From IMG/VR virus record IMGVR_UViG_2609459797_000004, positions 1 through 32,091 of that record: a DNA stretch of 32,091 nucleotides; one strand, 5' to 3'. Below the pieces are notes generated by a model, which saw nothing but the letters and a program-made list of their open reading frames with translations, made no database searches and was not told the DNA's origin. Position 1 is the first letter of the stretch. The number at the start of each line of letters is the position of its first letter. Source of the stretch: a virus (Duplodnaviria; Heunggongvirae; Uroviricota; Caudoviricetes). Below are positions 1 through 32,091 of the stretch, one piece after another. The translations under genes and the position numbers were made by a program.

Positions 1-273
1 TTTGAGCATGGTGTTGAGTTGCGCTTAATCCAGCCGGGCAAGCCAACGCAGAACGGATTTATTGAGAGCTTTAACGGACGATTTCGCGATGAATGTTTGA
101 ATGAGCACTGGTTCAGCGATATCGTTCATGCCAGGAAAATTATTAATGACTGGCGGCAGGATTATAACGAATGCCGCCCGCACTCCACGCTGAATTATCA
201 GACACCGTCTGAATTTGCAGCGGGCTGGAGAAAGGGTCATTCTGAGAATGAAGATTCCGACGTTACTAACTGA
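1..273 (+). CDS. IS3-family transposase OrfB (DDE integrase core), C-terminal fragment, 5' end cut by window edge
   Basis: Frame 1 is open from base 1. The motif [26 protein letters not shown]...[16 protein letters not shown] is typical of IS3-family OrfB C-termini. Confidence 0.8.
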
Positions 274-302
274 GTGTTGTATCTAATCGTGGGGGCAGGT
301 CA
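1..302 (+). mobile_element. IS3-family insertion sequence, right-hand end (partial; continues left of the window)
   Basis: Transposase OrfB C-terminus reads to a stop at 271..273. The sequence ending near 302 reads from outside as TGACCTGCCCCC..., resembling an IS3-family terminal inverted repeat (TG...CA ends). Exact boundary uncertain. Confidence 0.55.
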
Positions 303-539
303 GCGGGTATGTGTGGAACATTTAAACAAATGTTTGCTTTTCAAGAAGCAACCCAGATGCCAGGCGGAGATGAATTTATTGAACGTTTTTTGAATACGGA
401 AATTTCTCGCCTAGGAATGTCACTTCAAGAGTTCATGAAGTTGTGCACAGATTCTATAGAGTCATACAATAAATTAAAAAGGATGTCAGAATAGCCATCC
501 ATGGCTATCGGGAGGTTAATATGGTAACAGTCGGTTGGA

Positions 540-2708
540 TTATTGTTGCCCTGCTTGTTGCTCTGTGGGCAAAGAATCGTTATTACTGAGAAAAGCGACA
601 ATACCAACGCGGGCTAGATTTTTCTTCTCGTCCGCTGATAGCGTATTTACCCAATCCCTATATGGTTTCACTTTCTGCATTGAAGCATCCACCGATTTCC
701 TAGAGGCTGGGGTGCTGGCGTGACCTGCGGCAATCCTTTTTGAGAGATTTTTAAAAGCCGGAGATGCTATTAATTCATCAGCGGCAGCCATTCTTGAGTT
801 TTTACCAGAACGGAGGAGGCTAAAGAGTCCCCCTGCCGTACCGGCTCCAGGCGCTCCGATGGCTGTGGTTAGCCCTTCTGCTTTAGCCACGTCTTTTCCT
901 ATTCCATATATACGCCCAAGCATTCCCTTTTCTCCTGCGAACTGATTCATCATCCGGTCAATTTGAGAGGAGGAATACACCTTCTCGCTGCCCACCCTTT
1001 GCATGCCAGAAGCCACCTCATAGATGTTTCTCAACCTACGCGTAGCCGGATAGCCAATTGCCCGGCTCAATGCCTGCATATTTGATTTGTTTCTTGATAG
1101 CCCTCCATACCACTTAACAAATCCAGGAACACCAAGTGACTGCCCGGGAGATTTAGCGAACGTAGTGAAAGCCCTATTCATTGCGGTGGCAACAGCTGGT
1201 TGCACCATGTCATCAGGAAGATTTGAAACTAGGCGACGGAAGTCACCGCCCTTTCCTTGAGACATATCGACGATAGCTTGCTGTAATTGCGGCACTATTC
1301 CTTTATCCAAGTCTCTGCCAAGATTTTGAACAGCGGCTGCCTGTACTGCGAATCTCTTTCTCCCGATCTCTCTAGCTAAATTCCATGTATCCTCTGCACC
1401 ATATTTGGCAGCAGCGGCTCCCTGATCTTGTATCAGTGCGCTTTCAATAATTCCAAGGTGCCGAGCGTCGATGCCGCTATATGGCCCTTTATCCATCTCT
1501 TTGCCAAGAGCCCTTCCAACCTGCCGTCGAACTGCATCAAGAAGACCATAAGTCGGGGCGGTGTTTGGGTCTATTTGTTCCAAGGTCTTTGACAGTTGAG
1601 GATATAGCGATTTTAGTTTTTCTAGCCCACCGACATCATCTGCAATATCCTCAATGGCGTTAGTGGTATGGGTGGTATCTACGGTAGCTCTTGTTGGAAT
1701 TTTTGCTCTAATTTGATTGTATAGAGTGTCTTCTTGGCGCTTCAGGTTTGATCTTAACTCCTCATAAGAGCTTTTTACCTTTTGATTGATAAAGTCCTTA
1801 TCAACACTCCCACCAAAATCATTAATAAATTTATCTGCCTGCTCTCCAAGCCTACTAATGGCCTCTCGCTGTGCGTGGAACAGTTTATTCCCTGGGGTTG
1901 CAGCTAAAGCATTTTCAAACGCGCGGTAAGAAGGGTTTCTGGAGTACATGCCGGGAGTTAAGGCATCCTCCATCCCAAGATTGCGGGCGGCCTGTAGCAC
2001 AGAATCATCTGGTGAAACGGCTTTCGCGAGAGCATTTAAACCAGATCTGTTTCCTGTTATTGGATTCACATCTGTAGCTTTCGTTGCAACCCTCGCCATT
2101 CCACTAAGTTCAGATGCCTGAGACATTTCTGCCGATGGAGGCCTAAACCTCTTCGTAACCGCACTGGCTGCTTTACTAATCACTGGAGATGCCAATTCAG
2201 CAATTGGACCAGCGGCAGCACCTATAGCCGCCCCTGTAGTTACATTGCCACCGGTTCCGTTAGCAACAACACCACCTTCAACCGCACCAAGCCCTGCGGC
2301 GGCAGCCAGCCTTGCCGCCCCTTTCGGAACCTGAGAAATAATCCCACCACCACTAACAAATGGCGCTGCTTGTCCAACAAACTCACCAACATCTTGTGCG
2401 GTTGATGGTTTTGCCGCTAACTTCTGCTGTAGAGACTGAATTGCGGCTTGCTCTTCTGGTGTCATATCCTGAAACAGGCCAACACCTTTACCAACATCCA
2501 TCAATCCACTGAGAACGCCATACATAAAACGGTCGAAACCGTTAGCATTATTAACAACATTTTCCTGTCTGGAATTTTCCTCTGGTGAAACCAAAGGAGA
2601 TTGCTGCTGTTCTGGTTGGGAATCAAGCACAAAGCCATCAGGAAGTTGTGAGTTATCAGGCTGTTCATCCAGAACAAACCCCTCTGGTAAACCTACATTG
2701 GTTGCCAT
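540..2708 (-). CDS. Internal virion/ejection protein, P22 gp16-like (722 aa)
   Basis: Last and largest of three consecutive ejection-protein-sized ORFs downstream of the tail needle, with a Gly/Ala-rich central segment. Assigned by size and position in the P22-like gene order; homology not verified. Confidence 0.55.
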
Positions 2709-4042
2709 TGTCCGTTCCTGTAAATAATTTTCTGACCAGTTTTAGGATTTTTCGCGGTCATACCTTCTCGAAATGTTTGACCGCCAGATGTTGCTTGTTG
2801 TGTCTGTTGTTGCGCAGGCTGCTGAATATCTTCATACAGCTTGGCTTTTCTGGATTGCAATTGCTTAGTTAGTCCGCTGGGGAGAGAATCTCCATAAGTT
2901 GAAAGATAATCATCCATTTGCTGGTTAAACTTTTCGCCTTCAGTATTTGCCATCAGTTTTGAGGTGTTGATTAAGTCTTGGACTTGCTCATTATTCAGCA
3001 TCTTGCCGTTAGATAATTGGCTAACATAGTTACCAAGTGTGCCAAATATTCCATCAGTGCGTTTTACCTGCACTTGCTCACCTTCGCGTACCACAGATTG
3101 CGGATCCAGCGATTTCATATAGTTGAAAATCATTCCCAACTGCGCGGCTGGAGTGTTGCGCTTCCCAAGGGCTTGTAGGTTGTCAGAAGCACTGCGCATT
3201 GCAGAATAATTCTTTGAGAACCCATTAATATCACTATTCAGATCTCGAACAAGTTTTGGGTCAATCTTTCCGCTTTCCTGTTGTTTCATCCCTAATTCCT
3301 GCAACTTCAGGGCTACGTTATCATTATGCATTTGTGCCCGCTGAGCCCTGTCTAGTTGAGCGTTTTGGATATTTGCCCATCCTCTCGCGTTCTCCATGTC
3401 AGCCTGACGGATGCTTTCATCCAATCGCCCCTTCTCAAGTTGGCGACCAACCATCTTATCCTGATAATCCAGCATTTTATCCGGACCAACAGCCCCTAGC
3501 GTCATAGTAGTCAGCATGTGTGATAGCTGCTCTGGATTCTGAATACCTGTCTGAATCATCCAGTCAGCATTCGCCCCCACGCGATTTAACCTGTCCTTGT
3601 TGTCAGTAATGAATTTACTGTAGGCTTCCGGTCCCTGAGAAAGAGCGACGTTAGCCCTCATGGCTAAATCGCCCATATCGTTGCGTTGCTGATCATTAAG
3701 ACCGGAAAACGCCTGTTGTGCCTGTGCAACAAACGCTGGATTTTCCTGGGCAAACTTAAATAGTCCAGATGGATCACCAGAAGCCCATGCATCAGCGTGA
3801 ACCTTATTGAACGCACTAATAGCTTTCTGTTGCTGTTCCTGATTGTAAATATCAGCAACTCCAGCCAGACCACGTAACGCGGTCAGGCCAACGTTATTTG
3901 CACCTGAGCGAGCCAGTTCATTGTTTTCGCGGATCAGACCAAGCGTTGCGTTAATGTCGCTTGCCTTTGGTGCATTCTCATTTTGCGTACCAATGCCAGC
4001 CAGAAAACCACCAGAATTAATACCCTGTTGCCACGTAGCCAT
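2693..4042 (-). CDS. Ejection protein, P22 gp20-like (449 aa)
   Basis: Position between the gp7-like and gp16-like ORFs; Q/N-rich protein of the expected size. Confidence 0.5.
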
Positions 4043-15482: not shown

Positions 15483-15982
15483 TGCTGCCCCCACAAACAG
15501 ACTTCACGCTCAATCTCACGGCGAGTCATCAGCCCTTTCCATTGCTTACCGCCAGCGTATGTCCAGCGACGTAGCTGGTCACATGCGCCATTGATATCGC
15601 CCTGGTTGATTTTGCGAAGAAGCGTCGATGTTCTGAAATTGCCTGCGCCCACGTTATAGACGAACGAATAAAGAGCGCCGCGCGTTGTTTCCGGTATATC
15701 GACTTTGATGTACGGGTTAATTTGTCTGGCGACCGTGGCAAGGTCTTTATTCAGGAGGGCTTTGCATTCTGCTTCGGTATACGTTTTACCGAGCATGATG
15801 TCTTTTCCGGTATGTCCGTGACATACAGTCCATACACCAACAATATCTTTGTATGGTATGTAGCTGACACCTTCCAGACCATCGTTACCACTTGGCCCAG
15901 TGATTAACACAGATGCTATAGCAATAGCCCCGCCACTTATCGCCGCTATTACGCTATTTCGTAGTGCCGGTGACATTGCCAT
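15479..15982 (-). CDS. SAR endolysin (phage 21 R-type lysozyme, 167 aa)
   Basis: N-terminal weakly hydrophobic Gly/Ala-rich signal-anchor-release segment ([16 protein letters not shown]), then lysozyme body; near-identical to the remembered R21 sequence. Confidence 0.85.
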
Positions 15983-16157
15983 TCAATCTGTCCTCGCGCT
16001 CTTTGCGCTTGTAGTACCAGTTGATGCCAAATGTGCCGACAGTACAAAGAATACCAATGATGACAGCCCAGTCATTCAGGGAGAGAATGCCACCCATCGC
16101 AGTCAGTCCTCCGAAGCTGTAACTGAACCATTCTCTGATTTTGTCCATACGGTACAT
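15954..16157 (-). CDS. Class II holin (pinholin-like) with dual-start motif
   Basis: 67 aa with two predicted transmembrane segments and a charged C-terminus; starts M-Y-R-M (two Mets separated by a basic residue); overlaps the endolysin start. Confidence 0.65.
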
Positions 16158-16284
16158 GCTCTACCCCTTCATTGAGGGGATTTGCTCTATTTAATTAGGA
16201 ATAAGGTCGATTACTGATAGAACAAATCCAGGCTACTGTGTTTAGTAATCAGATTTGTTCGTGACCGATATGCACGGGCAAAAT

Positions 16285-16314
16285 GGCAGGAGGTTGTTAG
16301 CGCGACCTCCTGCC
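16285..16314 (-). terminator. Strong hairpin in the late leader (candidate tR'-like terminator)
   Basis: 10-bp perfect stem GGCAGGAGGT/ACCTCCTGCC with a 10-nt loop, followed on the minus strand by ATTTTG; lies between the Q-like gene and the holin. Confidence 0.4.
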
Positions 16315-16658
16315 ACCCGCTTTCACGAAGATCATGTGTAGAAGGCCGCAGCGTAACTATCACTGATGAATTCATGATAGCCAGTGGCTACTGCTCAGTT
16401 TGGATTGTGGCGACCGGTGCTGATCTCCGGTTTGCTGCAACTGCCTACAGCGGGCTACGTGGCCACACCGAATCCAGCGAAAGATTCTTGCCCTTACACA
16501 TCAGCCTGTGCATTCACCACAACGATAAGAGCACTGCGCGGCACCTTTCACCAATTCCGCGAGGTCTGCGGGTTCAATGCTCTTACCTGTTGTGCAAACA
16601 AAAAAAGCCACCGTTGCAACTTAAGAGTCACTAACGGCAGCTTACCCTCTAATTATGG

Positions 16659-17177
16659 CTAAATGGCTAATTGCATGTCAAGGCTTTTAACAGCAACATG
16701 CTTAACTTTCTCAACACGTTTACGCATTTTGAAAGCATTTTGCATTGGTTGGTACAAAACAAATAACGACGATTTCAGGATGTCGTCAATTTCGTTTCTA
16801 CAGGTTGCCAGTGAAGGTTTTCTCCATCCCTCGCCACCACGTCCACACATCTTGCGTGGCTTTGCAGTCGCGTGATAGTAGGATGCAATTGCTCGCTTTG
16901 ATGAACCATGAGCGTAGTAGCTGAGGAGGATGCCAAAGGCTTTCTTGTCAATGTACATGACGGAATCGACGACCTGAGAAATCAACATTCCATCATCATC
17001 ATTACACATTGGCCTTGTCATAACTCTTCCCGGCTCTACGCTCTCCATGAACTTCGCTATTACGCTGCTCATGCGCTTTTCCAGACGACCTGAATAAACC
17101 CATGCGCCCCAAAGTTCAAGCCAGCCATTCAGCCACTCGTGCTGCTCTTTGGTGAGGTTTAGTTCTCTTATGCTCAT
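16659..17177 (-). CDS. Putative late-gene antiterminator (Q-like, 172 aa)
   Basis: Last gene of the nin region, immediately upstream of the ~0.5-kb late leader and lysis cassette. Assigned by position only; sequence family not recognised. Confidence 0.5.
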   Translation of the reverse strand: MSIRELNLTKEQHEWLNGWLELWGAWVYSGRLEKRMSSVIAKFMESVEPGRVMTRPMCNDDDGMLISQVVDSVMYIDKKAFGILLSYYAHGSSKRAIASYYHATAKPRKMCGRGGEGWRKPSLATCRNEIDDILKSSLFVLYQPMQNAFKMRKRVEKVKHVAVKSLDMQLAI

Positions 17178-23682: not shown

Positions 23683-24024
23683 ATGACACAATTTCAACTT
23701 GCATTAATCGCTAGAGAAGTTGATGGAGAAGTCATCCATCTTCGCACCAAAGACGGATACATCAATGCCACCGCGATGTGCAAGTCTGCGGGGAAGCTAC
23801 TTGCTGACTATACACGACTAAAAACAACACAAGATTTTTTTGATGAATTATCACGCGATATGGGGATTCCCATATCGGAGTTAATTCAATCATTTAAAGG
23901 CGGAAGAGCAGAGAATCAAGGGACTTGGGTTCATCCAGACATCGCAATTAATTTAGCTCAGTGGCTATCTCCAAAATTTGCAGTGCAAGTATCGAGATGG
24001 GTGCGTGAGTGGATGTCAGGTTAA
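23683..24024 (+). CDS. KilA-N (APSES-like) domain protein, 113 aa, at the rex position
   Basis: AGGATGA ribosome-binding site; signature GYINATAMCKSAGK...DYTRLKTTQDF...GTWVHPDIAINLAQWLSPKF typical of KilA-N domains; co-oriented with cI. Confidence 0.7.
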   Translation: MTQFQLALIAREVDGEVIHLRTKDGYINATAMCKSAGKLLADYTRLKTTQDFFDELSRDMGIPISELIQSFKGGRAENQGTWVHPDIAINLAQWLSPKFAVQVSRWVREWMSG

Positions 24025-24063
24025 AGAGCGCCTGCCGAACTCCCTATCCACCTTAAGCGGTAT

Positions 24064-24442
24064 ATGACAAACCGAGGCAGAGTTCCTCATACGCACTTTT
24101 CTATGCTTAATGAACTGACGTTTAACTTGGTTGCGCCACTTGAACAGGCCGGATATACGCTGCCAGAAAAAATGGTCCCTGATATTTCAGAGGGTAGGGT
24201 TTTCTCGCAATGGCTCCGTGACAACCGGGGGGTTGAGCCGAAGACATTCCCAACATATAACCATGAGTACCCAGATGGCCGGACATTCCCGGTACGTCTA
24301 TACCCAAACGAATATTGCAGATTTCAAACAATACTTCAACGAAGTGTGGCTGCCTCAGTACGCTCCTAAATATTTTGCTGAACGAGACCAAAGGGCATTG
24401 ACGTTGATTGAGAAAATCATGCTACCTGACCTTGATTCCTAA
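24064..24442 (+). pseudogene. Interrupted coding region downstream of the KilA-N ORF (same frame to 24369, +1 frame to 24442)
   Basis: Frame-1 ORF 24064..24369 is separated from the KilA-N ORF by a single TAA. The protein-like C-terminal stretch that runs to the terminator is in the +1 frame (track ORF 24131..24442). May be a decayed gene or separate genes. Confidence 0.4.
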
Positions 24443-31890: not shown

Positions 31891-32091
31891 ATGCAACACG
31901 AACTACAACCTGATTCACTGGTTGATTTGAAATTCATCATGGCTGATACTGGCTTTGGTAAAACCTTCATCTATGACCGGATTAAGTCCGGAGACCTGCC
32001 AAAAGCCAAAGTTATCCACGGGCGAGCAAGATGGTTATATCGTGACCATTGTGAATTCAAAAATAAGCTCTTAAGCCGCGCCAATGGGTAA
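31891..32091 (+). CDS. AlpA/Xis-family small DNA-binding protein (excisionase-like, 66 aa)
   Basis: LKFIMADTGFGKTFIYDRIKSGDLPKAKVIHGRARW fits the AlpA/excisionase HTH pattern; GGAG ribosome-binding site; last gene before the window end, where int would be expected. Confidence 0.65.
   Translation: MQHELQPDSLVDLKFIMADTGFGKTFIYDRIKSGDLPKAKVIHGRARWLYRDHCEFKNKLLSRANG

Follow-up and report, generated by a model that had tools for sequence, protein, structure and literature searches.

The window analysed here, a stretch of 32,091 bp corresponding to bases 3-32093 of the 70,294-bp draft contig JNND01000063.1 (assembly GCA_000700525.1), carries a P22-like prophage related to Escherichia phage vB_EcoP_Kapi1, in which an accessory gene coding for a 99-aa protein is interrupted by the insertion sequence ISSen4 next to the end of the contig. 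This arrangement is probably the outcome of a simple insertion of ISSen4 into the accessory gene, the left arm of the prophage being located on another contig. The absence of a tailspike gene from the window is most likely an artefact of the contig end, that is, of an assembly break within a multicopy repeat, and no deletion is observed. Both the IS and the type of prophage are known, and the case is one of an ordinary IS insertion in a non-essential prophage gene. A literature search by accession found no paper on assembly GCA_000700525.1. The coordinates of the relevant features are collected in Table 1.

Table 1. Features of the IS junction and of the prophage, in window coordinates
Feature	Position	Strand	Remark
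3'-terminal 302 bp of ISSen4 (IS3 family; full length 1221 bp)	1..302	+	contig end cuts left side
IS transposase, C-terminal 90 codons and stop codon (OrfB part)	1..273	+	rve_3, transpos_IS3
Outermost bases of right inverted repeat, GGGGGCAGGTCA, ending CA	291..302	.	terminus as in four other copies
GCGG, presumed right-hand copy of 4-bp target-site duplication	303..306	.	inferred, right flank alone in view
3' remnant, codons 37-99 and stop, of signal-peptide gene cut by the IS	303..494	+	includes ORF 309-494
722-aa gene at gp16 position (third ejection / DNA-transfer protein), intact	540..2708	-	98.1% identity to Kapi1_058
66-aa TorI-type excisionase gene, right end of prophage	31891..32091	+	corresponds to Kapi1_001 'excisionase'
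ISSen4 left-end sequence, TGACCTGCTCCCCGTTGATTAGT			
Codons 1-37 of the 99-aa gene, ending ...GCTAAAGTTGCGG			missing side of IS junction

The identity of the element is unambiguous. Positions 1-302 are identical (302/302) to the last 302 bp of the complete 1221-bp copies present in E. coli IAI1 and in phage mEp234, and other ISSen4 copies display 97.6-100% identity over the overlap. The IAI1 copy is annotated as 'IS3-like element ISSen4 family transposase, programmed frameshift', and the term 'programmed frameshift' also accompanies complete copies with an identical 3' end in E. coli genomes. Read in frame 1, positions 1-273 match Pfam families rve_3 (E=1.7e-32) and rve_2 (E=9.7e-7) as well as model positions 298-368 (of 369) of NCBIfam transpos_IS3 (E=5e-24), the latter as a partial match that, with no more than 90 residues available, scores under the whole-protein cut-off. 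The preliminary description of this DNA had placed the end of an IS3-family element close to the end of the virion module, and this is indeed the case, a distance of 237 bp separating the IS from the last of the virion/ejection genes; the element itself occupies positions 1-302 and not 1-540.

The right end of the IS, ...GGGGCAGGTCA (last bases GGTCA), falls at base 302 and is common to five copies including the one in the window, while the left end of three complete ISSen4 copies begins TGACCTGC. When the reverse complement of the right end is aligned with the left end TGACCTGCTCCC, 11 of the 12 outer positions match, and ends of the TG...CA type are present. Since two complete ISSen4 copies are bordered by 4-bp target duplications (TGCG and GCGC, respectively), a right-hand duplicate is expected directly after the terminus, and the GCGG found there is presumed to be this duplicate. 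The insertion site of the window copy was absent from the 5,426 complete E. coli genomes searched. The complete copy of phage mEp234 (PV340539.1, positions 2082-3302) adjoins bet in the early-left region and has no target-site duplication, its flanks being CTCG and CAAC; a deletion associated with the IS is thereby suggested for this laboratory phage.

Immediately beyond its terminus the IS abuts coding sequence. Translation from position 303 yields AGMCGTFKQ...KRMSE*, which agrees at every residue with positions 37-99 of a 99-aa protein known in intact form as WP_022630937.1 (E. coli 1506 and EC20) and as Kapi1_059 (phage Kapi1); at the DNA level, 235 of the 238 positions of 303-540 are shared with the uninterrupted locus of E. 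coli 1506. The gene has been cut after codon 37, and its signal peptide and upstream part are gone. It is convergent with the 722-aa gene, the insertion point being 237 bp from the stop codon of the latter, and a consensus scan of the interval between the two genes (494-540) found no terminator. The stretch of about 240 bp described earlier as AT-rich is thus real (237 bp at 303-539, with 39.2% GC vs 47.4% for the whole window), but it consists of the remnant of a disrupted accessory gene and a 45-bp intergenic spacer and is not empty DNA. Likewise, the 61-aa ORF at 309..494, which had been regarded as weak, exists and represents the in-frame 3' part of a conserved gene rather than noise.

The family of the 99-aa protein (phrog_19844, function unknown) is small: a search with the full protein gave 10 clusters at 90% identity, from prophages of E. 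coli and Salmonella. No IS chimera was present among these clusters, one of which is a frameshift variant. Neither Pfam nor NCBIfam had a match for the protein, and PADLOC returned a chance-level match only. An AlphaFold model based on a nine-sequence alignment consists of three helices (mean pLDDT 81.6), for which searches of PDB and BFVD gave no significant structural neighbour (best E about 1). The 99-aa gene accompanies, in each of the eight relatives examined, a protein of 722/728 aa that occupies the gp16 position and has no Pfam match, and it is absent from the two prophages checked whose 665-aa protein matches PF26808; the two genes look like a linked pair. As a weaker side reading, the 99-aa secreted protein could be a cognate periplasmic superinfection-exclusion factor, which would have been lost by the lysogen.

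On the other side of the spacer, the virion module is found in the canonical P22-like order (portal, scaffold, coat, gp4, gp10, needle, gp14-like, gp7 and gp20), with gene lengths equal to those in intact relatives. Precomputed Pfam assignments on the source contig comprise P22_portal, Phage-scaffold, P22_CoatProtein, P22_Tail-4, Phage_stabilise, Phage_tail_NK, DUF2824, P22_gp7 and Inj_translocase. The 722-aa gene comes after the gp7-like (PF25688) and gp20-like (PF16928) genes, and the exact protein is on record in one contig, JNND01000063.1. Its product resembles the gene 16 protein of HK620 weakly (23.8% identity, E=3e-8) and is also weakly similar to the ejection proteins of epsilon34 and CUS-3. 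It has no Pfam match at E<=0.01 and so does not match PF26808 (Phage_P22_gp16), the family to which the 665-aa proteins of other P22-like prophages correspond. The label 'gp16-like' previously given to 540-2708 is therefore appropriate with regard to position and distant similarity, and does not extend to a PF26808 match: the 722-aa protein is a positional analogue and distant relative of gp16 outside that Pfam family.

The remainder of the IS, which one would look for to the left of the window, is out of view, as base 1 is preceded by two contig bases (CC) and then by the physical end of JNND01000063.1. A further contig of GCA_000700525.1, namely JNND01000061.1 (257,840 bp), which was found via an 84-aa partial transposase ORF, ends within the same IS at the same offset, and the terminal 304 bases of the two contigs are identical. 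The fact that two contigs stop at the same base of a multicopy element implies repeat-induced assembly breaks at both ends; because ISSen4 is multicopy in this genome, the short-read assembler halted 304 bp inside the IS.

The second copy is also informative as to the arrangement of the locus. On JNND01000061.1 the IS has a clean junction 9 nt into yfcU, which codes for a fimbrial usher; in E. coli HS, a strain with an empty argW site, the corresponding point is 11.3 kb from argW. It is the right end of the IS that is present on either contig, and these two ends point outward, in opposite directions. Two inverted copies must therefore bracket yfcV...argW together with the left arm of the prophage, about 20 kb in all, in the manner of a composite element. 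A deletion by one IS that would have fused yfcU to the prophage was considered and rejected, both junctions being right-end junctions; an inversion or a more complex event would be compatible with them. The order and orientation of contigs 61 and 63 agree with the reference, which suggests that contig 62 (JNND01000062.1) may hold the intervening segment.

Comparison with relatives indicates where a tailspike gene should be sought. In tblastn searches of the window with the tailspikes of three relatives and with Int, Ant, Arc and Mnt of Kapi1, no match was obtained at E<=1e-3; the earlier statement that the window contains no tailspike gene is thereby borne out. The relatives examined were Kapi1, E. 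coli 1506, E. coli EC20 and five Salmonella contigs with a near-identical 99-aa protein (19 similar places were left out). In every one of them (8/8), the tailspike gene starts 2.4-3.6 kb past the insertion point, after the arc/mnt/ant genes, so that none would be expected within the window even without the IS. In the orientation of the window, Kapi1 presents the integrase, the tailspike (Head_binding), an HNH endonuclease, ant, arc, mnt, three small ORFs, Kapi1_059 and the 722-aa gene. The same order of 722-aa gene, 99-aa gene, arc/mnt/ant and tailspike is seen in E. coli 1506, EC20 and the five Salmonella contigs, and the integrase follows the tailspike in Kapi1 and E. coli 1506, the two argW-integrated relatives that were read that far. 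A tailspike gene displaced beyond the IS is likelier than one that has been lost. The view that the missing tailspike betrays a prophage defective for adsorption is unsupported, given that the window begins 2 bp from the contig end and that the tailspike genes of relatives are located well beyond this point.

The window and Kapi1 are colinear between positions 32819 (within Kapi1_059) and 91 (excisionase gene) of the phage record. The Kapi1 record begins at the att core, which adjoins the excisionase gene Kapi1_001, and many E. coli contigs have a 66-aa excisionase identical to that of the window at a distance of ~180 bp from dsdC. In relatives at the argW locus, the integrase is found at the opposite, argW-proximal end, and Kapi1 is known to integrate in argW (PMC8787464). 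Judging from the sequences of these relatives, the part missing from the window should be the left arm, comprising codons 1-37 of the 99-aa gene, immunity-I, the tailspike gene, intS and attL.

In one relative, an ENA metagenome contig (11128-18021), dsdC does not come next to the excisionase gene; its place is taken by genes for a second integrase, an AlpA-like protein and a primase. This resembles a tandem arrangement of the P22-like prophage with a satellite or PICI-type element, and mobilisation of a PICI by Kapi1 has been reported in E. coli MP1 (PMC11773190). Furthermore, positions 23683-24442 (+) of the window, just downstream of cI, contain a 113-aa KilA-N ORF followed by two short ORFs in other frames, and the gene calls of near-identical relatives at this region have a weak 'BstA_C' match. 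The region has the appearance of a bstA-like abortive-infection gene that is split or degenerate.

The arrangement probably arose as follows. A copy of ISSen4 transposed into a Kapi1-related P22-like prophage located between argW and dsdC. IS3-family elements move by copy-out/paste-in, and in the present case the element landed after codon 37 of the 99-aa secreted accessory gene. Such an insertion removes the promoter, the start codon and the signal peptide of this gene, and the virion and ejection genes stay intact. The rest of the prophage (arc/mnt/ant, tailspike, intS and attL at argW) most likely continues beyond the IS on another contig.

Several searches were directed at the missing left arm. 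The predicted left-junction ORF of 49 aa (37 codons plus IS read-through) had no candidate in a protein collection, a result that says nothing either way because the word index also missed the intact family. A search for the tailspike of the strain via the head-binding domain (PF09008) gave almost exclusively partial tailspikes, and the two that were looked up belonged to other assemblies. Nearly all of the top-scoring matches to this domain were truncated proteins of <200 aa located at contig ends, so that the conserved N-terminus of tailspikes seems to be a point at which draft assemblies of enterobacteria frequently break. In complete E. coli genomes neither IS junction was found, nor was a near-identical prophage, the best prophage match covering 72% at ~97% identity.

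Alternatively, the IS may mark a rearrangement, in which the left arm (immunity-I, tailspike and intS) was deleted or a segment was inverted between two ISSen4 copies; the tailspike gene would then be lost or no longer coupled to the late operon, with a defective prophage as the result. We consider this unlikely. It is true that no left-arm gene of the strain was found, that the second, inverted copy in yfcU would provide a substrate for inversion 11.3 kb from argW, and that the mEp234 copy, lacking a target duplication and standing beside a shortened early region, indicates that ISSen4 can accompany deletions. However, the failure to recover the left arm reflects the limits of the searches and not absence, and the right-end nature of both visible junctions rules out a one-IS deletion joining yfcU to the prophage. 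Moreover, the disrupted gene carries on in frame from a break that coincides to the base with the IS terminus, while the 31.8 kb of prophage in view, with intact virion genes as long as those of relatives, fit a recent and otherwise functional prophage. It is tempting to speculate that the two inverted ISSen4 copies have recombined with each other or are moving as a composite, which would uncouple the tailspike and integrase genes from the late operon and lock the prophage in place. If true, this would be a step towards domestication, but we hold such a scenario to be highly doubtful.

That the junction between IS and prophage is an assembly chimera, with no IS at this site in the real genome, is hardly credible. 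The junction is admittedly <=304 bp from a contig end and in a repeat, where misjoins occur, and no complete genome displays the same junction. Nevertheless, the switch from IS to prophage takes place exactly at the terminal CA of the element, and a chimera is not expected to respect a transposon end to the base. The junction is furthermore located inside a gene that is otherwise nearly identical to the uninterrupted locus (235/238), and the sister contig has an equally clean junction in yfcU.

With regard to the simple insertion, which is the best-supported account, the immediate effect is that the 99-aa secreted protein is no longer made. The transposase gene of the IS runs against the late operon, and the element is placed between this operon and the presumed tailspike gene; possibly, 1.2 kb of IS in opposite orientation would also lower tailspike expression through polarity. 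Neither the loss of the 99-aa protein nor a possible reduction of tailspike expression would be surprising, and no new question is opened by them. The case may rather serve as a caution: a prophage that seems to be tailspike-less at the edge of a window may owe this appearance to a repeat-induced contig break, and to call it defective is to over-read the sequence. The left arm is presumably still present, and the phage may be viable.

In its visible part, the element does not differ from ISSen4, an IS with IS407-type ends annotated in E. coli and Salmonella genomes, with which it shares the terminus, the rve_3 C-terminus and the sequence itself. The window shows only a quarter of the IS, whereas complete copies comprise 1221 bp with a frameshift transposase and 4-bp duplications. 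As to the attachment region, the recombination module of the KplE1 (CPS-53) / Sf6 / HK620 type has intS at attL and torI at attR. The window shares with this module a 66-aa TorI-type excisionase as the last gene, intS and both att sites being outside the window.

The closest comparison is with Kapi1 (MT813197; Lederbergvirus), to which the window is 97.6% identical at the nucleotide level over 303-2768 and with which it has in common a TorI-type excisionase gene at the att end. The likeness is mosaic, with exchanged or divergent segments as is usual for such phages: the immunity region (cI), the portal gene and portions of the nin and lysis regions are either different or no more than 64-88% identical. 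Kapi1_059 is intact in Kapi1 and interrupted in the window, and positions 32820-39436 of the Kapi1 record (genes 060-070, including tailspike and int) have no counterpart in the window. In addition, Kapi1 carries tRNA-Asn and tRNA-Thr between the Q and holin genes, whereas ARAGORN found no tRNA genes in the window, where this region corresponds to 15900-16700.

A precedent for an IS in such a phage is provided by Sf6. According to PMC5630979, which draws on Casjens et al. 2004, this Shigella phage carries an intact IS911, an IS3-family element of ~1.2 kb, situated in a non-essential gene of the nin region and oriented against late transcription; the phage is infectious, with a slowed life cycle. 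The resemblance thus lies in the presence of an IS3-family element in a P22-like temperate phage, in an orientation opposite to late transcription. The two cases differ in the IS concerned and in the module affected, which is the nin region in Sf6 and the gap between the ejection genes and immunity-I in the window, and viability, demonstrated for Sf6, would here have to be presumed. Since Sf6 is infectious with IS911, an IS of such size is compatible with a working P22-like phage.
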